Virus record (IMG/VR): IMGVR_UViG_2917403263_000001
Length of the DNA stretch: 50,015 nt
Source of the DNA: a virus
Taxonomy: Duplodnaviria; Heunggongvirae; Uroviricota; Caudoviricetes
Direction: 5' to 3' (one strand)
The notes below the pieces were generated by a model. That model was not told the DNA's origin, made no database searches, and saw nothing but the letters and a program-made list of their open reading frames with translations. How positions within the stretch are numbered: the first letter of the stretch is position 1; each line of letters starts with the position of its first letter. Positions 586 to 50,015 of the stretch are shown here, one piece after another. The position numbers and the translations under genes are program-made.

Positions 586-2656
586 TATGCAATCCTCATG
601 AATAGCGCCACAAACGCCTGATCGCTGTATGTCAGCATGGTGCCTGACATTGCAATGTACGAGCCAGGAAGCGAATGTGAGTTGCAGCCGACAACGTAGA
701 ATCTGGGGGTTGATGCATAAGTGCCTGAAGGATTAAATGGACACTCAATTCCAACTGGCCCCAGACGCGAACCCGGATAAGACTGTCTTCTGACAACCTT
801 TATATTTTTATCACCGTCAGCAGTTCCCTGATATGCAGCTAATATCAGGCCTCCAATATCGGGGTCACCCCAGTCGTAATTGACGTATGAAAATAGCATG
901 TTACGAACTTTGTTTTTTGTCATGCTAATCTCTTCCCATCCACCTAACGAGCCACCGAAAGTGGAACCGATGAGAACATCCCTATTTATCCCGTAAAAAA
1001 TCAGCAACTTCTTTACTCTGCGAGCATTGCTATAACCATCCCGATTTGTGTTAATCCACAAAACATCGATGATCCCCTCAAAATTCACACTGGATATCGG
1101 CGTGTATCCATTGAATTTATGGTAGTACCTGCCAGGAAGAGCATAATTAGCCCAATTTTCCAGTGCAGAGGCACTATTAAAACTTACACGCCCGTAATAT
1201 TCGTCTTCATACGTGTACCCAAACCCATAAGCGCCAGCCAACGCCAAGACCGAATTCATCATCGCCTTATCGGGCCATGTAAAGGGATTACTGATGACTG
1301 TTTTATTAGCAACCCCCCTGATTTGCAGATTCTCCTGTGCTTTAGCCAGTGCTGACGAGCCAGCATCAACGATTTCCTGAAGGTTGTTTTTTATCTTGAG
1401 ATACCCGCCATCGAGGATATCGTCAATTTCGCCTTTGGCATTCTCTGCTGATTCTGCAGCTGTCGCTGCATCCTGCGCATACTTTTGAGACTGCTGCTCA
1501 TGCAGCTCTGCTTTCTGTGCGTGTTTTTGGGCGTTCTGTTCGCTCAGTGCCGCATTGTCAGAACTTGTTTTTTGAATCTGTGGCACTGAATTCAGAATCC
1601 TTCGCTGCCTGCCGTGCTTGCTTTACCGCGTCCGCGACATCCTGCACACCCTGCTGCACCTGCCCGGCGTTCTGCTCAACTTCTGAAGCCAGTTGTTCAA
1701 CATATTGCTTATCTTTGGCAGCCGCGTCAGCGTTCTGTTGCACGTTATTCGCCAGCGTCTGGCAGTCTTCCTTTATCTTCTGTGCATCGGCTGCGTGTTG
1801 CCCTGCCAGTCGCTCGCTTTCCGCTGCTGCATCCTGACTATTTTTCGCCGCCGTTTCGCTGGTTTTGGCATTCGTTTCACTGGTTTTTGCTGCCGTCTGG
1901 CTGGACTTTGCGTTGGTTTTCGCTCGTCTTTGCTGCTTTCTGGCTGTTAGCCGCAGCAGTTTCTGATCCAGCTGCCGATGTCGCAGAACCGGCTGCCGCG
2001 CTCTCGCTTGCTTCCGCTGCATCCTGGCTGTTTTTCGCCGCAGTTTCACTGGCTTTGGCATTCGTTTCGCTGTCTTTTGCTGCCGTCTGGCTCGACTTTG
2101 CTGCTGTCTCGCTATTTTTTGCGTTGGTTTCCGATTTTTTGGCTGCTGTCGCGAAGTTTTCCGATGCAGTCTGTGAGGCCGCTGCTGCCTGTGCGCTGTT
2201 AGCTGCATCCGTTTCTGAGCTTTTCGCCGCGTCCTTCGATGATGCCGCTGCAGTTTCGGATTTCTTTGCCTCTGCTGCGCTCTGAGAGGCGGCTTCAGCG
2301 TTACGCGCAGCTTCGTCCACCATTGCCTCAAAACGGCGCAATGCCTCCGGCATAACATCATCTTCCGTCATGGCACCGAGAAAATCGTTCAGTGTTCCCG
2401 GCCTGGAACCGTCATAGACGGTAATGGTTCCGGCATGTGAAGGCGGAAAACCTTCAACCAGCAGGATAACGCTGTACTGACCATACTCAACATCCATGCT
2501 ATAACGCCCGGCTTCATCCGGATTTTCTGAGGCCACCGTATTCACCACGACTGTGGTGCTGTTACGCTTTGCCTTCAGTTGAATAGTGCAGTTCTGTATT
2601 GGTTTTCCCGCACCATCTTTCAGTACACCTGAGATTTTTACTGCTGCCATATCCAC
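585..2656 (-). CDS. stf: Side tail fiber protein (Stf-like), reading frame broken twice as assembled
   Basis: N-terminus MDMAAVKISGVLKDGAGKPIQNCTIQLKA matches lambda Stf; coding continues in three successive frames (ORFs 1877-2656, 1558-2361, 585-1586) with SETAAK-type repeats; breaks at T4 run ~1912 and T6 run 1568-1573. Confidence 0.75.
1825..2115. repeat. Tandem ~190-bp direct repeat inside stf (2 diverged copies)
   Basis: 1825-1925 and 2018-2115 are near-identical (gctgcatcctg..ttttcgccgc..gtttc..ctgg.tttggcattcgtttc); encodes repeated SETNAK/SETAAK blocks. Confidence 0.8.
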
Positions 2657-2660
2657 TCCA

Positions 2661-2688
2661 CAAAAAAGCCCGCCTGAACCGGCGGGCT
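2661..2688 (-). terminator. Rho-independent terminator downstream of lom
   Basis: agcccgcc-tgaacc-ggcgggct hairpin followed by U-run on the minus strand. Confidence 0.6.
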
Positions 2689-2714
2689 GTCATAACACTG
2701 TGTTACCCGGCTAA

Positions 2715-3314
2715 TCAGAATTTATAACCGACACCAACGATGAAACCGTCAGTGCGCCAGTCGCCACTGCCGGAACCTTCATAAGCAAGGTCAATGGCCA
2801 CGGATTCGGTCGGGTTAAACTGCACGCCAGCCCCCCACGCCAGAGACGTGTTGCTGTGGCGACCGCCATCACTTCCGGTCAGCACATCGTGCGTTTTCCC
2901 CTTGTTGTCAGCTACGCGGAGATAATCCCCGGAAAACGTCGAAACACGGCTGTAAGCCACACCCGCCATCGCATAAGCACTGAACCATTCATTCACGCGC
3001 ACAGATGGTCCCGCCATCATGCTGAACCAGCGGTTATGCGCTGAATCTTCATGCCAGCGGGTATCGCTGTAACGGGTAATCTGGCGATTCTTGTCTCCTG
3101 CATAGCTGAATGACGTCACCAACCCCAGCGTGTCCGTAAATTCATAACGGTATTTCACGTTAATGCCCTTCAGGTCATCGTTGCCGGGCATATCAGTATG
3201 GGACTGAAGATACCCGCCGCTTAGTGTGGACTGATGCTCTACTGCACTCGCTGGCGTACCAGCGGCGACCAGCCAGACTACTGCAGACAGAATAACAGCA
3301 CATAATTTACGCAT
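2715..3314 (-). CDS. lom: Lom outer membrane protein (Ail/Lom family)
   Basis: 199 aa with signal peptide and C-terminal GVGYKF beta-barrel terminus; sits between J and stf as in lambda. Confidence 0.85.
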
Positions 3315-3338
3315 AATTACCTCTCGCTTTTCTGCAAT

Positions 3339-3362
3339 AAAAAAGGCGCCATTTCTGGCGCC
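3339..3362 (-). terminator. Putative terminator downstream of J
   Basis: Self-complementary ggcgcc-atttct-ggcgcc hairpin followed by U6 on the minus strand. Confidence 0.45.
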
Positions 3363-3383
3363 CGTATTGGGGTTATAAATATT

Positions 3384-6300
3384 TCAACGAATACTGATAC
3401 CGGAAGCAGCTTTTTTGGTCACAATCACCGTACAGTCTGTGATGTTACCTGCGCCCCGATTGCCTTTCTGGAAAATCTTAAACTCCAGAGTGACGCTACC
3501 ACCACCACTCGGCATATCAATAACCGCGCTGTAACTACCGGGAATGGCTCCTTTAGTTTCTCTGGATGCGATTAATACGCCGTTTTTACGAACTTCAAAA
3601 CCATAACCCGTGTATCGCGTACCTCCCGGTTTATTACCGCTCCCCGGATCGTCATACGCCACACCGTTAAAAATAATGGGCGGAATAATGATTTGGCGGT
3701 CAAAGTTATGATCATCGTAAATGGTGACTGTAACCGTCCCGCCTGGTGTTTCCGTGTTACCCCACGTACCAGCCTGTTTCGGGAATGATTTGGATACAGT
3801 TTTAACGAAGTCACCTCTGACCTGGTTCGCCTCCAGCATGCCCTTAATCGTACAGTTTTCATTTACCGTGACGTTGTTGAGCGTCCCGGAGTTCGCATTC
3901 ACGTTACCGCTGATATCAGCATTTCTCGCCGTCAGCCGCCCGTCCGGTGTCAGGGAAAATGCCGGAGGATTACCACCGCTGGTAATGGTGGGAGCCGTCA
4001 GATATTTCAGAAACACTTCGTTCATGAATATCTGGTTGCCCTGCGCCACAAACATCGGCGTTTCATTCCCGTTTGCCGGGTCAATAAACGCGATACGGTT
4101 AGCGGCAACCAGGAACTGGCTCAGTTTGCCTTCCTCCGTATCCTCCATGCTGAGGCCAAGCCCCGCGACATAATGCCTGCCGTCTTCGGTCTGCTCAATT
4201 TTGACGCCCCACATGGCATTCCATTTATCGTTGGCGTCTTTCCACTCTTTCGAAAACTCCTCCAGTTTGCTGGCGTTATCCTCCGTCAGCTCGACTTTTT
4301 CCAGCAGCTCTTTACCGAGATGGGATTCGGTTATCTGGCCTTTGAAAAAATCCAGGTAACCTTCGGCATCATCGCTCGCCCGACCGACAGCCTCCACGAA
4401 TGCCGATTTGCCAACGGTGTTCACACTGCGGATATAAAAATAATAATCATGGCCCGGTTTGATATTGATACTGGCAGCTATCCAGTACAGCGCCGTGCCA
4501 AGATAGCGGGCTGCGGTTTCAACCTGCCTGATATCCGCAATCCGCTTTTCCGAGAACCAGAACTCAAACTGTACCGTCGGGTCATAAACGGCAAGATGCG
4601 GCGTTGCGGTTATCTGAAAATAGCCCGGCGTCAGCTCAATCCGCGACGGTGCTGCCGGTGCGGCAATCCGGAACGATACCGACGCCGGATCGCCCTGCTG
4701 CCCCCACGCATTTACTGCCCGGACTGTCAGCGTGTAACGCCCCAGCGCCAGTTGCCTGAAGCGGTATGTGGTTTCCGTCGTCCGGGCTGTGCTGACAAGC
4801 CGCTCACTGCCGTCATCCGCTGCCACGGTCAAGCGAAGCGTAAAGCTCACCCCCTTCACCACCTTCGGCGTGTCCCATCGCGCCAGTACCTGATATTCCC
4901 CGCTGTCTGCGGTGACTTCGGCAGTCAGGTGCTGCACCGCTGGCGGCGTGACACCATTCACCGTGCCACTCTGGTCGCCGTCAAAGTGCGCCCCGTTATC
5001 CACGATGGCCTCTTTTTCCGGCACATGCTGCACGGCGGTGATGGCATACGTGCCGTCGTCGTTCTCACGGATACTCACACAGCGGAACAGGCGCTGACGC
5101 AGCGTCGGCAGCTTCAGCCCCCACACGCTGTATTCGGCAACGCCGTCAGGAACACGGCTCACTTTTACCTTCACGCCGTCGGTGACGGACTGGACCTCCA
5201 CGCTGACCGGATTCCCCTGCCCGTCAACCAGGCTTATCAGCGTGGTGCCGGAGGATGGCAGCGTGATTTCACGGTCGAGCGTCAGCGTCCGGGTCTGGCT
5301 GTTCACCGCCAGCACACGCCCACCGATGCTGATCCCCGCATAGTCATCATCACAGATTTCAATGACATCGCCCGGTACATGGCGAAGCCCTTCTGCGCCC
5401 ACGCTGAAGTCCACGGTCTGCGTTTCCAGCAGCTCCGTTTTAATCAGCCACAGCCCGGCGCGGTGTGCCTGCCCCCGGCTGGTACAGCCAAAGGCATCCA
5501 TCTTCGTGACGTTACGACCGTAACGGAGAATGGCCTGCGTGTCCTCCACAAGCTCTGTCGCCGTCTCCCAGCCGTTATCCGGGTCAATCCAGTTCACCTC
5601 AACGGCATTATGGCGGTCCTTCAGGGCGCTGAAGCTGTAGCGGAACGGCGCGCCATCATCCGGCATCACCACATTACTGTGGTTATAGGTCCACACCTTA
5701 TCCGACGGTCGGTCCTGCACGAACGTCAGCGTCTGCCCGTTCCATACCGGCATACAGCGCATCGCCGAGCAGAAATCACTGAGAACATCCCACGCCTTAC
5801 GCTGTGTGGTCAGGTAAGCGTTACAGGTGATGCGCGGCTCCGTGCCACCAAAGCCGTCCGACACTGACTGGTCGCAATACTGGCCGATGACATACAACGC
5901 CCATTTATCCACATCCGCCGCACCAAGACGTTTCCCCATGCCGTAGCGCGGGTGGGTCAGCATATCCCACAGACACCAGGCCATATTGTCGCTGTATGCT
6001 GGCTTAAACGTTCCGTCCCAGATACCGCTGTATTGCCGCGTCTGCGGGTTATAGTTCGACGGCACCTGCAGAATGCGCCCGCGAAGATGATAATTACGGC
6101 TCACCTGCTGGCTGCCGAACTGCTCCGAATCCACCTGCACGCCGACCAGTGCCGTGTTCGGGTAGCACTGTTTCACATCGATGATTTCGGTGTATGACGA
6201 CCAGAGCGTTTTGTTCTGCAGCTGGTCTGTGGTGCTGTCCGGCGTCATCCTGCGCATCCGGATATTGAACGGGCGCGGCGGCAGGTTATCCACCACCACC

Positions 6301-42996: not shown

Positions 42997-43233
42997 ATGA
43001 ACACTTTGTTCGCTCTTGTCATGACCGTTTTTCTGACATCAGGCGAAACTCAGGATGTTGTTACCGGAATTTATAACTCCGAACCTGAATGCAAGGCCGC
43101 AGCTATTGAGCAAAAAGTAGCTGGCGAATGTTTCCCTGTTGAGAAATTTATCCGGCCTGTAAATGAAGAAATTCCCGCAGGCCTCACAGGAGAAAATCAT
43201 GAAAATAAAATGTGCTTACCACCTTTGCAATAA
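42997..43233 (+). CDS. Hypothetical small secreted/membrane protein
   Basis: SD gggag; N-terminal hydrophobic MNTLFALVMTVFLTSG; overlaps ORF 42867-43076, so one of the two is probably not real. Confidence 0.3.
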   Translation: MNTLFALVMTVFLTSGETQDVVTGIYNSEPECKAAAIEQKVAGECFPVEKFIRPVNEEIPAGLTGENHENKMCLPPLQ

Positions 43234-43363
43234 AGAAGTTGAAGAAAGCAAAACTATTACAAGACCACTTCATTTCATGCGTGGAGTTATCCCAACGACG
43301 GAAATGAAAAAATATTGTAGTGAAATCTGTGCCGAAAAAGACCAGATGGCACACGAACTTTAA
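43199..43363 (+). CDS. ydaE: Small zinc-ribbon protein (YdaE-like)
   Basis: MKIKCAYHLCNKEVEE..KYCSEICAEKDQMAHEL with CxxC/CxxxC pattern; SD aggag. Confidence 0.55.
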   Translation: MKIKCAYHLCNKEVEESKTITRPLHFMRGVIPTTEMKKYCSEICAEKDQMAHEL

Positions 43364-43437
43364 TTAACTGACTATTCGAAAATGAATTTATGCCAGCAAT
43401 GGCAGGGATTCGCTCAACCTTAATTAAGGAGAAAAAC

Positions 43438-43707
43438 ATGATTACCAATTATGAAGTCACTGTTGTAACTACCGATGACATTGTTCACGAGGTTAATCTG
43501 GAAGGAAAGCGTATTGGCTACGTGATTAAAACAGGAAATAAAGAAACCCCATTCACTGTGGTTGATATCGACGGTCCATCAGGCAACGTAAAAACACTTG
43601 ATGAAGGTGTCACAAAAATGTGCCTGGTTCACATCGGAAAGAATCTGCCCGCAGAAAAAAAAAGCCGGATTTCTGGCAACTCTGATTGCAATGAAATTAA
43701 ACGGTGA
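43438..43707 (+). CDS. racC: RacC-like protein
   Basis: MITNYEVTVVTTDDIVHEVNLEGKRIGYVIK; A9 run at 43655-43663 near the 3-prime end makes the last ~17 codons length-sensitive. Confidence 0.55.
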   Translation: MITNYEVTVVTTDDIVHEVNLEGKRIGYVIKTGNKETPFTVVDIDGPSGNVKTLDEGVTKMCLVHIGKNLPAEKKSRISGNSDCNEIKR

Positions 43708-43815
43708 AATCTGAAAGAAATAGCCTGCGTATGGCGCAGGCTATGAACAGTGTGTATCCGGCAAGATCATTCACTGAACAAAACGAATTTTAATCTGAGT
43801 TGAGGTTAAAAAACA

Positions 43816-46800
43816 ATGAGCACAAAACCACTTTTCCTGTTACGGAAAGCGAAAAAATCATCCGGTGAACCTGACGTCGTCCTCTGGGCAAGCGACGATT
43901 TTGAATCGACCTGTGCCACTCTGGACTACCTGCTCGTTAAGTCAGGTAAAAAACTGAGCAGCTATTTTAAACATGTTGCCACGAATTTTCCTGTCGTTAA
44001 TGACCTTCCCCCTGAAGGTGAGATCGATTTTACCTGGAGTGAACGCTATCAACTCAGCAAAGACTCCATGACCTGGGAACTAAAACCAGGAACAGCGCCA
44101 GACGACGTTCACCATCAGGAGAATGCACCGGAAACCGAAGAACCGGCGGGAGGCCAGGAAGAAAACACACGGGCAGACGCTCACGGGGATTGCCAGGATT
44201 GCGAAGTATCTGTATCTACTTTGCGGTTCACACAGCGTCTTCTGCACATTTTTACCTATGCGGCCGGGGATCGGAAATACCTGCATCATGCCACCCGAGA
44301 ACAACGCGAACACATTACTGCTCTTGAGATGGATCAGGAAAACAGCTATGTCCAGAATCTGCTGTTGGCCATACGCGGCATGGCAGAACCGACAACTCTG
44401 GATAATGCCGCCCTGCTCCGCCTGACTGATGCAATTAAGGCAGTTTTCTCTATCACGAAAAAACATCAGCCCTATGAATTTAAGAATTTCATTTCAGCCT
44501 GGCTGGATACCGAACACATTGATCGCGGTCTTCTGACAAAAGAATGGCAAAAAGGGAATCGTGTTTCACGCATCACTCGCACGGCTTCCGGTGCTAATGC
44601 TGGCGGCGGGAACCTCACCGATCGCGGCGAAGGTTTCGTCCATGATCTGACGTCACTGGCGCGCGATGTAGCCACTGGCGTACTGGCCCGTTCAATGGAC
44701 GTGGACATCTATAACCTTCATCCGGCACACGCGAAACGCATTGAGGAAATTATCGCTGAAAATAAACCGCCCTTTTCTGTTTTCCGCGACAAATTCATCA
44801 CCATGCCTGGCGGGCTGGATTATTCACGCGCCATCGTGGTTGCGTCCGTGAAAGAAGCACCAATTGGGATCGAGGTCATCCCCGCGCACGTCACTGAATA
44901 TCTGAACAAAGTACTGACTGAAACCGATCATGCCAACCCTGATCCGGAAATCGTGGATATTGCCTGCGGTCGCTCCTCTGCCCCGATGCCGCAGCGTGTA
45001 ACAGAAGAAGGAAAACAGGATGATGAAGAAAAACCACAACCAACTGGAACAACGGCAGATGAACAGGGAGAGGCTGAAACAATGGAACCGGACGCAACTG
45101 AACATCATCAGGACACGCAGCCGCTGGATGCTCAGTCACAGGTAAATTCTGTTGATGCGAAATATCAGGAACTGCGGGCAGAACTCCATGAAGCCCGGAA
45201 AAACATTCCATCAAAAAATCCTGTCGATGCCGATAAATTGCTTGCTGCATCACGTGGTGAATTTGTTGACGGAATTAGCGACCCGAACGATCCGAAATGG
45301 GTTAAGGGGATCCAGACTCGCGATTCTGTGTACCAGAACCAGCCAGAAACGGAACAAAACACGCCAGAAACTGAAAAAACCAGCCCGGATGTGAAACAAC
45401 CAGAGCCAGTAGTGCAACAGGAACCGGAGAAAGTCTGCAATGTCTGTGGCAAGACTGGCGGGGATAACTGCCCTGACTGTGGTGCGGTGATGGGCGACGC
45501 AACATACCAGGAAACATTCGATGAAGAGAATCAGGTTGAAGCTAAGGAAAAAGATCCGGTGGAAATGGAAGGCGCTGAACATCCGCACAATGAGAATGCT
45601 GGCAGCGATCCGCATCGTGATTGCAGTGATGAAACTGGTGAAGCGTCAGCTCCTGTAGCAACTGAAATCATGTGGCCGTCATATTTCGAGCCTGGCCGCT
45701 ATGAAAACCTCCCGAACGAGGTTTATCACTCCGCCAACGGAATAAGCAGCACGATGCTGAAGGATGCCCGTATCAGCCTGATGTATTACCACGGACGGCA
45801 CATTACCGGAACTATTCCGAACGAGGAAAGTGATGCACTGCTGCGTGGGCGGATCATTCACAGCTATGTTCTGGAAACGGATAAATTCGCTGATGAATAT
45901 GCCATTCCGGTACCGGTTCCTGAATATGTGGTTACTACTTCTAACGAACTGATCGCCATCATTAAAAAACACAATGCCAGTCTGCCAGCACTGATGACAC
46001 CAGAGCAGATGAAAGAGTGGATCGAAAGCTACAACAGCACTCTTATACAGCCACTGTCTGTAAGTGCCGGGGCCGAAGAAACAGGCATCCTTTACGGTTC
46101 GCTTCCGGTGGAATTTCGGCGTATTCCTGAGGGGGAAAAACACACAGCATCAGCAATGAAAGCCTGTATTAAAGAATACAACGCAAGCCTCCCTCCTCTG
46201 TTGAAAACCAGTGGAGCACGGGAGCAGCTTCTGGATCAAATTGAAACTGTAGACCCAGAACTGGCAAAAAAAGAACGTGCTAAATCTTTGCCTTACAACA
46301 TCAGTGGCACAAAAGAGCAATTAACCGAAATCGCACGGAAAATTCGCCCGGAACTGGTGACACTGGAGGACTGGCAAAAACGCCAGCAAGAAGAAAATGC
46401 CGGGAAAACGTTTATCAGTCCGGATATGTATGAACAGGCAAAAAATATTCACGCGGCACTGCAAAACAATACCGATGCAGCAAGGCTACTCAACCACCCG
46501 GATCGCAAATCTGAAATCAGCTATTTCGGGTTTGATGAAGAAACCGGGCTGGAAATCAGGGTCCGTCCTGATATCGAAATCCGGCTGCCATACGAAAGCA
46601 TTTGCGCTGACGTGAAGTCAGTCAGCCTCGGTTATGTGCGACAGGAACGACTTAAAGATCGCCTGCACCGTGAAATTATTGAGCGTGATTATCACCTCAG
46701 CGCCGCAATGTATTGCGATGTGGCAAACCTGGACAAATTTTTCTGGATCTTCGTCAACAAAGATGCTGGCTATCACTGGGTGGCAGTCGTGGAAGCCTCG

Positions 46801-46959
46801 CAGGAACTCCTGGAACTTGGTCGACAGGAATATCGCCGGACGCTACGCCAGATAAACGAAGCCCTGGAGACAAACAACTGGCCAGCACCGATTACCGAAA
46901 GTTATACCGACGAATTAAACGACTTTGATCTTCGTCGTCTTGAAGCACTGAGCATCTGA
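43816..46959 (+). CDS. recE: RecE-like exonuclease VIII with divergent, insertion-bearing C-terminal PD-(D/E)XK domain
   Basis: 1047 aa; N-terminal ~600 aa match Rac RecE (recalled: [29 protein letters not shown]); C-terminal [13 protein letters not shown] nuclease motifs; internal repeat HNASLPALM / YNASLPPLL. Confidence 0.8.
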
Positions 46960-46970
46960 GGAAGGACACA

Positions 46971-48023
46971 ATGAACGAATTAACTCAACAAGAAAATATT
47001 AACTCTAATGTTGCGGTTTTCAGCCCTCAGTCCCTGGCTGCAATTCAGACATTTTCCCAGGTAATGGCTTCCGGCATGGCTACTGTACCGGAACACCTCC
47101 GGGGAAATCCATCAGACTGCATGGCCATCACCATGCAGGCGATGCAGTGGCAAATGAACCCTTACGCAGTAGCTCAGAAAACTTTCGTTGTGAATGGTGT
47201 GCTCGGATATGAAGCGCAACTGGTTAATGCCGTAATCAGTACTCGTGGGCCGCTAACCGGGCGTATTGAATATGACTGGTTCGGGCCGTGGGAAAAAATT
47301 ATCGGGAAATTTGAAATCAGGAAGAGCGACAAAGGGAAAGAATATCGTGTACCTGGCTGGAAGCTGGCCGATGAAAACGGGATCGGTGTTCGTGTCCAGG
47401 CAACACTACGCGGCGAAAGTAAACCACGCGTACTGGAATTACTTCTGGCGCAGGCCAGAACACGTAACTCAACGCTATGGGCCGACGATCCTCGCCAGCA
47501 GCTTGCCTATCTGGCGCTGAAACGCTGGGCGCGCCTTTATTGCCCCGAAGTGATTCTTGGAGTGTACACCAGGGACGAACTGGACGAGCCACAGGAAAAA
47601 ATCATTAATCCGGTTCAGGAACATAAAAACACTTCCGCTTGCCGCGCGGAACGTGAAACAACAATTATTGAGCAGGATGCCGGGGAAAACTGGATCGATG
47701 CTTTCCGTGAACGTATTGAGCAGGCACAAAGCACCGGGGAAACAACAGCACTTCGCCAGGAAGTGGAAGATCATAAAAATACACTTGGCGCTCTCTATAC
47801 GGAACTTAAAGGAAAAGTGGTTCAGCGTCATCACCGTCTCAATGCTATTGCCCGTATCGAGAAGATGATAAATGACCTACCTTCTTCAGGTGATCCAGAA
47901 GCAGAACAAAAATTTACTGCTCTGGAAAATACGCTGAATGCTGCCCGGCCACATCTGGGTGAATTATATGAGGCGTATAAAACGACACTGACAGATATGA
48001 AACCAGAATATATCGGCTCCTGA
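46971..48023 (+). CDS. Putative single-strand annealing protein, divergent RecT-family, in the recT position
   Basis: 350 aa directly downstream of recE-like gene; LAYLALKRWARLYCPEV resembles the RecT-family C-terminal motif; not canonical E. coli RecT. Confidence 0.5.
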   Translation: MNELTQQENINSNVAVFSPQSLAAIQTFSQVMASGMATVPEHLRGNPSDCMAITMQAMQWQMNPYAVAQKTFVVNGVLGYEAQLVNAVISTRGPLTGRIEYDWFGPWEKIIGKFEIRKSDKGKEYRVPGWKLADENGIGVRVQATLRGESKPRVLELLLAQARTRNSTLWADDPRQQLAYLALKRWARLYCPEVILGVYTRDELDEPQEKIINPVQEHKNTSACRAERETTIIEQDAGENWIDAFRERIEQAQSTGETTALRQEVEDHKNTLGALYTELKGKVVQRHHRLNAIARIEKMINDLPSSGDPEAEQKFTALENTLNAARPHLGELYEAYKTTLTDMKPEYIGS

Positions 48024-48086
48024 TATTGACTTTGGCGGTGTAGCCTCACCGCCATCACAAAATTTTATTTTATGAGAGAAAAGACA

Positions 48087-48281
48087 ATGCGGTATGAAAA
48101 AGTCAAACCATGCCCTTTTTGTGGTTGTCCATCAGTAACGGTGAAAGCCATTTCAGGATATTACCGCGCGAAGTGTAACGGATGCGAATCCCGAACCGGC
48201 TATGGTGGAAGTGAAAAAGAAGCACTCGAACGATGGAATAAACGAACCACTGGAAATAATAATGGAGGTGTTCATGTATAA
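48087..48281 (+). CDS. ralR: Restriction alleviation protein Lar / RalR
   Basis: MRYEKVKPCPFCGCPSVTVKAISGYYRAKCNGCESRTGYGG; matches Rac Lar/RalR (recalled). Confidence 0.8.
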   Translation: MRYEKVKPCPFCGCPSVTVKAISGYYRAKCNGCESRTGYGGSEKEALERWNKRTTGNNNGGVHV

Positions 48282-48462
48282 AATTACCGCCACTATTGAA
48301 AAGGAAGGTGGCACTCCTACTAACTGGACAAGGTACTCAAAAACAAAATTAACCAAATCAGAATGCGAAAAAATGCTCTCAGGTAAAAAAGAAGCAGGCG
48401 TTTCCAGAGAGCAGAAAGTAAAACTGATAAATTTTAATTGCGAGAAAATTCAGTCCTCGTGA
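48276..48462 (+). CDS. ydaC: YdaC-like small protein
   Basis: MYKITATIEKEGGTPTNWTRYSK..; SD ggagg; overlaps ralR end. Confidence 0.55.
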
Positions 48463-48561
48463 GTTGCATTGTATTCAAATTAAAACTTCATAGCTGATTA
48501 TTAATAATCAACATCGGGCGTCAATTTCGGTCTAACATTGGCGCCTGCCAGAGGTGATGCG

Positions 48562-48777
48562 ATGGCACAAGTAATCTTTAATGAAGAGTGGATGGTTGAA
48601 TACGGCCTGATGCTTCGCACTGGTCTGGGGGCCAGACAAATTGAAGCATACCGCCAGAACTGTTGGGTGGAAGGCTTCCACTTCAAACGAGTATCTCCTT
48701 TAGGGAAGCCAGACAGTAAGCGAGGGATTATCTGGTACAACTATCCAAAGATAAATCAGTTTATCAAAGACTCATGA
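48562..48777 (+). CDS. xis: Excisionase
   Basis: [35 protein letters not shown]..; immediately upstream of int with 1-nt spacing. Confidence 0.8.
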
Positions 48778-48778
48778 T

Positions 48779-50015
48779 ATGTCTAAATTACCAACAGGTG
48801 TCGAGATTCGAGGTAAATACATTCGCATCTGGTTCATGTTTCGAGGAAAACGATGTCGGGAAACATTGAAAGGCTGGGAGGTTACTAACAGTAACATTAA
48901 AAAGGCCGGGAATTTAAGAGCATTGATAGTTCATGAAATCAACTCCGGTGAATTTGAGTATTTAAGACGTTTTCCCCAGTCCAGCACTGGGGCAAAAATG
49001 GTGACAACGAGGGTCATAAAAACGTTCGGGGAGCTTTGTGATATCTGGACAAAAATTAAAGAGACAGAGTTAACAACAAACACAATGAAGAAAACGAAAT
49101 CACAATTAAAAACAACTCAGGATAATAATTTGTGAGAGTACACATATATCACATATTCGTTATAGCGATATCTTAAACTACCGGAATGAACTGCTGCATG
49201 GAGAAACGCTTTACCTGGATAATCCAAGATCCAACAAAAAAGGAAGAACCGTGCGCACAGTTGATAACTATATCGCCCTGCTCTGTTCGTTGTTACGTTT
49301 TGCGTATCAGTCGGGATTTATATCAACCAAACCATTTGAAGGAGTAAAAAAATTACAGCGAAACAGAATAAAGCCTGATCCGTTATCTAAAACAGAATTC
49401 AATGCATTAATGGAAAGTGAAAAAGGACAGAGCCAGAACTTGTGGAAATTTGCCGTTTACTCCGGGCTTCGTCACGGGGAACTGGCTGCTCTGGCGTGGG
49501 AGGATGTGGATTTCGAGAAGGGAATTGTGAATGTCAGAAGAAACCTGACGATACTTGATATGTTCGGTCCCCCAAAAACAAATGCGGGGATCCGGACGGT
49601 AACACTACTACAGCCTGCTCTTGAAGCACTGAAGGAGCAATACAAACTGACCGGGCATCATCGCAAAAGCGAAATCACTTTTTATCATCGGGAGTACGGC
49701 AGAACCGAAAAGCAAAAACTGCATTTTGTTTTCATGCCCAGGATGTGTAACGGAAAACAGAAACCTTATTACTCGGTAAGCAGTTTGGGTGCGAGATGGA
49801 ATGCAGCTGTAAAACGTGCTGGTATTCGCCGCCGTAATCCGTACCATACGCGACATACTTTTGCCTGCTGGCTGTTGACGGCAGGAGCGAACCCGGCATT
49901 TATAGCCAGCCAGATGGGGCATGAAACTGCGCAGATGGTGTATGAAATTTACGGTATGTGGATTGATGACATGAACGACGAACAGGTAGCTATGTTGAAT
50001 GCGCGGTTATCGTAG
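48779..50015 (+). CDS. intR: Tyrosine integrase (IntR-like), reading frame broken as assembled
   Basis: N-terminal 118-aa ORF (MSKLPTGVEIRGKYIRIWFMFRGKRCRETLKGW) and C-terminal ORF from ~49109 (catalytic R..HxxR..Y region NPYHTRHTFACWLL..GHETAQMVYEIY) lie in different frames; shift near aaaaacaactcagg at 49098-49111. Confidence 0.8.

Follow-up and report, generated by a model that had tools for sequence, protein, structure and literature searches.

A probable Gifsy-type RecE/RecT cassette in a Rac-family prophage of Escherichia coli: an expanded exonuclease domain beside a tailed RecT-family annealase

The closest described relatives of the genes studied here are the RecE/RecT systems of the Rac prophage of Escherichia coli K-12 and of the Gifsy prophages of Salmonella. 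In Rac RecE, residues 564-866 constitute a nuclease domain which can stand in for the full protein, the N-terminal region being dispensable, and residues 665-698 form disordered loops at the channel rim that are thought to capture double-stranded DNA (dsDNA) (PMC11611040). Exonuclease and annealase interact specifically with their own partners, according to Muyrers 2000 as cited in PMC11611040. The Gifsy recET orthologues are repressed in lysogens and suppress recombination defects once activated, as stated in the part of PMC3121763 that cites Figueroa-Bossi 1997 and Lemire 2008, and a 2025 survey in Genome Research took 'Gifsy-1' as the prototype of the class B lambdoid Rec module, made of a nuclease and a strand-annealing protein and devoid of an anti-RecBCD gene (PMC12315714). 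The DNA analysed here, called the window, is a stretch of 50,015 nucleotides of a virus of the Caudoviricetes (IMG/VR record IMGVR_UViG_2917403263_000001). At positions 43816 to 48023, it carries a recE-like and a recT-like gene which, in all probability, form a Gifsy-type RecE/RecT catalytic cassette carried by a Rac-family lambdoid E. coli prophage.

The two open reading frames (ORFs) and their features lie on the plus strand, exactly where an earlier reading of the sequence by a model (the original prediction) had placed a recombination module. The recE-like gene (43816..46959) encodes 1047 residues, in which a Rac-type N-terminal region is fused to a Gifsy-type nuclease domain, and the recT-like gene (46971..48023) encodes a 350-residue single-strand annealing protein of the Gifsy/HK225 subtype. 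The assignment of the pair to the exonuclease and annealase families is supported by Pfam, PHROG and NCBIfam. The RecE-like protein contains Pfam Exonuc_VIII (PF06630) at residues 2-182 (E value 1.7e-65), and at full length it passes the NCBI RecE equivalog NF007259 with 1371.6 bits for a cutoff of 1269. For either protein, no Pfam, NCBIfam or PHROG match was found to the Exo (YqaJ/lambda Exo) and Bet families. The recE ATG at 43816 is preceded by a Shine-Dalgarno-like GAGG, and a second Shine-Dalgarno-like sequence, GGAAGGA (46960..46966), was read directly after the recE stop codon (46957-46959) and ahead of the recT ATG (46971). The gap between the recE stop and the recT start is 11 nucleotides, and promoter and terminator scans within the module gave signals at or below shuffle expectation, so the pair looks co-transcribed, as judged from the sequence. 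About 70 nucleotides upstream of recE, a 10-bp GC-rich inverted repeat (ATAGCCTGCG...CGCAGGCTAT) is present at 43720-43744, with a terminator-like score on the minus strand.

Comparison of the window with the K-12 Rac DNA by blastn revealed 93.6-95.9% identity at 43201-44117, 44521-45657 and 48033-50015, and no match between these segments; the portions of recE which match K-12 Rac are 93.6-94.1% identical at the DNA level. In BLASTP alignments, residues 1-101 and 236 to about 614 of the RecE-like protein are near-identical to K-12 Rac RecE, and past residue 615 or so the identity falls to about 29%, across residues 899-1024. Two blocks are thus replaced relative to K-12 Rac. The first one, which corresponds to a blastn gap at 44118..44520, covers RecE residues ∼102-235 in the N-terminal region and aligns to Gifsy-2 RecE instead of K-12 RecE. 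The original prediction that the first ∼600 residues resemble Rac RecE holds for residues 1-101 and 236 to about 614, this replaced block excepted. The second one (45658..48032) is an exchanged cassette which comprises RecE residues 615-1047 and the whole of recT, the K-12 homology ending at 45657 and returning at 48033. Its boundary coincides with the known RecE domain boundary. With the Escherichia phage Rac-SA53, DNA homology extends over 43201-47237 and 47496-50015 and is interrupted at 47238-47495, corresponding to RecT residues ∼90-175. As Rac-SA53 RecT has a different core and a similar tail, there is a further mosaic joint inside recT relative to this phage, in whose locus L002 the segment 6147-7250 stands opposite 46971-48023 of the window. 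The locus is therefore a natural case of clean modular exchange at the RecE domain boundary (residue ∼614), with a second joint within recT, and the exchange pattern fits the view that nuclease domain and annealase must travel together. In the N-terminal region, residues 541-556 (45436-45483) display a CxxC...CxxC motif which is kept in K-12 RecE and in Rac-SA53 and is absent from the aligned Gifsy-2 segment; it may be a zinc ribbon.

The C-terminal 435 residues of the RecE-like protein (613-1047; 45652..46959) correspond to a RecE-family PD-(D/E)XK exonuclease domain, for which a 5'->3' activity on dsDNA is predicted by homology. The catalytic residues H682 (45859-45861), E900 (46513-46515), D919 (46570-46572), D932 (46609-46611) and K934 (46615-46617) are invariant among 35 homologues of 22-85% identity, and H682/D919/D932/K934 align with H652/D748/D759/K761 of Rac RecE. 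Pfam DUF3799 (PF12684) was detected at residues 860-1024 (51.3 bits for a cutoff of 26; profile positions 61-222), the first 60 positions of the profile being split off from the remainder by an insert described below. The AlphaFold2 model of residues 613-1047 has a mean predicted local distance difference test score (pLDDT) of 92.6, and its top Protein Data Bank match in Foldseek is the RecE structure 3H4R (E value 5.2e-10; target-normalised TM-score of 0.61), with further PD-(D/E)XK exonucleases ranking below it. The catalytic region is divergent, as had been proposed, with its ∼29% identity to the K-12 RecE core, and domain and structure predictions describe it as an expanded nuclease of RecE fold. 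The link with the Gifsy prophages is much closer. Residues 526-959 of Gifsy-2 RecE give a gap-free BLASTP alignment with residues 613-1047 of the window protein, including the insert and both of its NASLP motifs, and the nuclease domain of Gifsy-1 RecE is 52% identical to that of the window over 99% of the domain. Nucleases which bear the insert are 59-62% identical among themselves and ∼30% identical to short nucleases. The expanded domain is widespread, being carried by about 30 clusters at 50% identity, including stand-alone proteins of ∼430 residues, and many relatives of ∼280 residues without insert are found.

On the basis of profile matches, the 350-residue protein is a bona fide member of the RecT family with an N-terminal core, and is not the orthologue of Rac RecT. 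Pfam RecT (PF03837) covers residues 30-209 (47058..47597) with 147.5 bits for a cutoff of 24 (E value 4.6e-43), the whole protein matches phrog_561, a 'RecT-like ssDNA annealing protein' (ssDNA, single-stranded DNA; E value 1.3e-145), and the core has 60 invariant columns across 8 homologues. The remaining residues, 211-350 (47601..48020), form a tail of 140 amino acids in which a Pfam scan detected no family. The original prediction had located a RecT-family-like motif at the C-terminus; in fact the RecT domain is N-terminal and central, and the C-terminal 140 residues are an extra tail. Gifsy-2 RecT is 49% identical to the window protein over the full length, tail included (residues 10-349), and the RecT proteins of HK225, mEp237 and SPN3UB are also 49% identical over the full length. 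With Rac RecT, no significant BLASTP similarity was observed (best E value 0.36), and when the RecT-core profile was compared with Rac RecT by hhalign, the probability was 0.15%. The NCBIfam models NF007351 and TIGR00616, on which K-12 RecT scores 464 and 416 bits, were not matched, and no NCBIfam match at all was obtained for the window protein, the Bet model TIGR01913 being among the models scanned. Sequence searches of the Protein Data Bank with the protein and with the RecT-core profile gave no match either, so that the Pfam hidden Markov model (HMM) is the only link between the window RecT and Rac RecT. The partner had been called non-canonical, which is right in that it is not a Rac RecT orthologue and wrong in that it is a standard member of the Pfam family.

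The same RecT-core subfamily occurs in other arrangements. In phiV10 (L006, 3616-5376), it is fused to a short RecE nuclease, and in SPN1S (L007, 3234-5340) an HNH endonuclease gene lies between it and a 274-residue exonuclease VIII; both are without tail, and their cores show 53-65% identity within the subfamily of the window. RecT cores which are 72-73% identical to that of the window are also encoded by two tiny contigs of actinobacterial assemblies, one of 1270 nucleotides listed under Actinomadura (L021) and one of 588 nucleotides listed under Geodermatophilus (L069), which are probably enterobacterial contamination.

These data bear on the possibility that the locus is a mosaic of a novel kind, with a RecE scaffold that has received a new catalytic domain from outside the RecE family, together with a non-canonical partner, and has thereby gained a new recombination specificity. 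The boundaries against K-12 Rac are real, and in pairwise comparisons the nuclease core (29% identity) and RecT (no BLASTP match; hhalign 0.15%) are unlike the K-12 proteins. Nevertheless, the catalytic domain belongs to the RecE family by Pfam, fold and active site, the partner is found in Pfam RecT with an E value of 4.6e-43, and the domain combination is not new, as Gifsy RecE has the same Exonuc_VIII N-terminal domain. Moreover, the whole cassette is a known Gifsy-type module, widespread and annotated. When 5426 complete E. coli genomes were searched for the cassette alone, it was found in 193, in 94 of them at 99% identity or more, and RefSeq genomes reach 99.8% DNA identity over it. Among the matches listed, all those of full length bear the annotations 'RecT family recombinase' and 'recE: exodeoxyribonuclease VIII'. 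A single partial match, labelled as a partial 'recombinase RecT', is what a deletion has left of recE-recT. The cassette is already known: the phage recombination system to which it belongs is well studied, and this allele is common and annotated. The novelty of the mosaic is largely refuted; we regard that explanation as improbable. Pairwise alignment to Rac RecE and RecT revealed neither an ordinary Rac RecE domain nor a standard Rac RecT. The proposed mosaic therefore stands against K-12 Rac RecE, as a known and common allele; it is neither unusual nor new, being colinear with Gifsy-2, HK225 and PHB10 and found in the 193 E. coli genomes. The pair is thus best described as a Gifsy-type cassette in a Rac-family prophage. 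For its relatives in Salmonella, function has been demonstrated by genetic means, and the pair has little weight as a discovery; the little-described detail is the repeated helical insert in the nuclease.

A further relative was found under an unexpected host name. The record PP818812.1, 'Actinobacillus phage vB_Apl-pPE4', assigned to Actinobacillus pleuropneumoniae, shows 95.9% DNA identity over the recE-recT module (793-4979), with a RecT 100% identical to that of the window. This record looks like that of a Rac-like phage of E. coli filed under a different host, by contamination, by induction of a prophage from the propagation strain or by a real host range.

The insert is an all-helical segment of 170 residues (699-868; 45910..46419) which takes the place of the ∼32-residue rim loops of Rac RecE. 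Its limits were set by adding K-12 RecE and the 274-residue SPN1S exonuclease VIII to the homologue alignment, in which it stands opposite Rac RecE residues 669-700, a net gain of ∼138 residues. The insertion of ∼170 residues claimed by the original prediction is thus confirmed. Eight helices were predicted, in context as well as for the insert alone, with pLDDT values of 83-95. The sequence holds three [IL]xx[YH]N[AS][ST]L units, namely HNASLPALM (residues 719-727; 45970..45996), YNSTL (46030..46044) and YNASLPPLL (residues 788-796; 46177..46203), whose asparagines N720, N740 and N789 are invariant among the 35 homologues, together with two SG[ST][KR]xxL units. The duplicated motif noticed earlier, HNASLPALM and YNASLPPLL, is therefore present, and is actually threefold. 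A self-BLASTP of the C-terminal domain showed no repeat, and Smith-Waterman alignment with shuffled sequences was used instead: the segments around the two NASLP motifs score 62, for a shuffle mean of 22.7 and a maximum of 56, and as none of the 2000 shuffles reached 62 the duplication exceeds chance. Short nucleases have a single unit, 'FNRRTNxGKxxExAFL', aligned within the insert region, and this suggests, insofar as the alignment is correct, that the insert grew by amplification of a motif already present in short nucleases.

The homologous inserts were also compared with known DNA-binding motifs. SAP and helix-extension-helix (HeH) motifs bind DNA in proteins such as SLX4, DEK, Ku70 and PIAS. 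When the inserts of 26 homologues were scanned, 16 matched Pfam SAP (PF02037), in two cases with a score above the gathering threshold; 7 of the 26 matched SAP_new25, and a few matched LEM/Ish1, which are related motifs. Foldseek with the whole insert module gave no match. The SAP/HeH resemblance of the insert is thus suggestive, not established. In the literature that could be searched, no description was found of SAP-like repeats standing where Rac RecE has its DNA-capture loops; a module of this kind could be the reason why RecE types differ in the way they handle substrates.

To see how the insert is distributed with respect to the RecT tail, 80 loci with relatives of the RecT core, taken from one genome per species, were surveyed along with the earlier loci, and the resulting 89 loci were scored with HMMs for nuclease core, insert, RecT core and tail. 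Insert and tail are inherited together: both are present in 25 of the 89 loci, and no locus has the insert without the tail. Another 21 loci have a short RecE-type nuclease and no tail, 37 have no RecE-type nuclease, and in 6 the tail is found with no detectable insert. Four of these six have truncated nuclease ORFs, and the two others (L060 and L061) are weak tail matches beside short nucleases. In other words, a tailed RecT adjoins all 25 insert-bearing nucleases, and two weak tail matches occur among 23 loci with short nucleases. Similarity in the RecT core is no predictor of the class to which a locus belongs. The RecT core of locus L013 is 79% identical to that of the window and yet comes without tail and without insert, and that of L085 is just 59% identical and yet comes with both. 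This comparison suggests that the tail, rather than the core, follows the nuclease type, which would give a testable rule for the design of hybrid recombineering pairs. The sequence H82, considered as a tail joined to a different RecT, was rejected, being a recE-recT deletion pseudogene.

By homology, the pair would act as follows. RecE, probably as a ring, would resect DNA ends on their 5' strand, leaving a 3' single-stranded tail. In place of the short flexible loops of the channel rim, the nuclease would present a helical module of repeated SAP/HeH-like units, which most likely contacts the incoming duplex. The N-terminal core of RecT would coat the 3' tail and anneal it to complementary single-stranded DNA, and the 140-residue RecT tail probably tethers the annealase to its cognate nuclease. 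The tail is a reasonable candidate for a nuclease-docking element by analogy with the C-terminal domain of Red-beta, which binds lambda exonuclease, and with the RecE/RecT partner specificity (PMC11611040). As a tentative extension, the insert would derive from amplification of the SAP-like 'N..G[KR]xxExxL' unit of the rim loops of short RecE, forming a multi-SAP collar at the mouth of the ring that alters end recognition or processivity, and the RecT tail would be a portable address label for the nuclease. In that case, any annealase could be matched to this nuclease for recombineering by exchange of its tail.

The insert might instead be a platform for protein-protein contacts, either a docking site for the RecT tail or an element for oligomerisation of the nuclease ring, and set partner specificity, not substrate handling. 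This explanation, which we consider possible if doubtful, is in agreement with the strict co-occurrence of insert and tail in the RecT-seeded survey (25/25, no insert without tail), with the sub-threshold SAP evidence for the insert of the window itself, and with the 'shuffling of partner interaction domains' suspected in the survey of lambdoid Rec modules (PMC12315714). Two metagenomic loci, though, argue against it. L091 (4001-6372) and L090 (2161-4548) encode stand-alone nucleases of ∼430-444 residues which keep the complete insert; the nuclease is followed in L091 by a Sak4-like AAA_24 protein and in L090 by a phrog_3657 protein ending in an acidic '...EEDDLI' tip, and neither of these partners has the RecT core or the tail. 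As these partners are not RecT proteins, the expanded nuclease pairs with several annealase types, and as they have no tail, the insert is not simply a tail receptor; its role as the exclusive docking site of the RecT tail is weakened accordingly. In addition, the insert stands in for loops assigned to dsDNA capture in Rac RecE (PMC11611040), and the nucleases with an insert have a distinct core in common as well, to which the tail might bind just as readily.

Several points weigh against the interpretation of the locus as a working Gifsy-type pair with a DNA-contacting insert and a nuclease-docking tail. The co-occurrence of tail and nuclease type was drawn from loci seeded with the RecT core, which are not phylogenetically independent, and distant expanded nucleases have tail-less partners other than RecT, so that the tail is not the universal partner of this nuclease type. 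The insert of the window is below Pfam SAP even at an E value of 1 or less, its best match being Ish1 (E value 0.15), and the SAP matches in homologues span just the second half of the profile. The neighbouring integrase gene is frameshifted, so this prophage may be decaying.

The end of the window falls within the left arm of a prophage of the Rac family. Directly downstream of recT, as in K-12 Rac, are a Lar/RalR-family gene (48072..48281, plus strand; Pfam Lar_restr_allev, E value 4.3e-14) and the RalA antitoxin small RNA (48280..48458, minus strand; Rfam RF02694, 213 bits for a gathering score of 170). Past RalR/RalA come a DUF1233 excisionase and an IntR-type integrase, and in related genomes the integrase is followed by ttcA, the Rac attachment site. 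The integrase frame is broken into two ORFs (48779..49135 and 49251..50015) by a frameshift near 49114, where K-12 intR has one A less; in related strains, intR is intact and encodes 411 residues. The extra A is either a real inactivating frameshift, with which the prophage could not excise, or a homopolymer sequencing error.

With such a neighbour, the pair could be an inactive relic of a decaying cryptic prophage, its unusual domain resulting from degeneration or from a chimeric accident. Rac is a classic defective prophage, the adjacent integrase frame is broken by a 1-base insertion, and recE-recT deletion derivatives are found in other strains (L089). We nonetheless consider this very improbable. 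Both ORFs are intact and have ribosome-binding sites, all catalytic residues are conserved, and the same architecture is maintained down to ∼25% identity across many genera and occurs in infectious phages, namely HK225, PHB10 and Rac-SA53. Furthermore, the ratio of nonsynonymous to synonymous substitution rates (dN/dS), computed against strain NADC1036, which is 95% identical over the cassette, has values of 0.05-0.13 for its different parts. With counts that are small, it amounts to 0.13 for the N-terminal part of the nuclease core, 0.13 for the insert, 0.07 for the C-terminal part of the nuclease core, 0.05 for the RecT core and 0.06 for the RecT tail, as compared with 0.33 for the RecE N-terminal region. 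These values are indicative of purifying selection throughout the cassette, and decay or pseudogene status of the pair was rejected on the basis of dN/dS and conservation.

Among known systems, the Gifsy module has the same arrangement as the window, with recE-recT upstream of xis-int and no anti-RecBCD gene between, and Gifsy RecE shares the Exonuc_VIII N-terminal domain. The RecE/RecT architecture of HK225 and PHB10 is also the same, and the tail HMM matches the RecT proteins of Gifsy-2, HK225, PHB10 and Rac-SA53. The window differs from Gifsy by its N-terminal ∼612 residues, which represent the Rac allele (two blocks with about 94% DNA identity to K-12) and not the Gifsy allele (37-44% amino acid identity), and by its prophage surroundings, which are those of Rac (ralR/RalA, xisR, intR, ttcA site). 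The sequence identity to the Salmonella Gifsy proteins is just ∼50%. The nearest named phage is Rac-SA53 (KU052037), which has the same genomic context and whose RecE is 95% identical at full length and 98-100% in the nuclease domain; its RecT shows 57% amino acid identity in the core and 74% in the tail, the last ∼50 residues being identical.

The window shares with K-12 Rac the RecE N-terminal region, except for residues ∼102-235, as well as the PD-(D/E)XK fold, the H/D/DxK active site, the expected role as 5'->3' exonuclease and annealase, the prophage and the chromosomal site. In contrast, the nuclease core of K-12 Rac RecE (exonuclease VIII; 3H4R) is ∼29% identical and has rim loops (residues 665-698) instead of the 170-residue helical repeat module. 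K-12 RecT has 269 residues, whereas the window protein has 350; it is thus 81 residues longer, with a tail of ∼140 residues past the core, and the two cores are not detectably similar in pairwise comparison and belong to different NCBIfam models. Lambda Red follows the same two-part logic, with a ring exonuclease and an annealase of the RecT/Red-beta superfamily, and the binding of the Beta C-terminal domain to Exo is the basis of the role proposed here for the tail. It differs in that lambda Exo is only a distant match to the nuclease model of the window (Foldseek E value 0.02) and in that the window module has no Gam-like gene.

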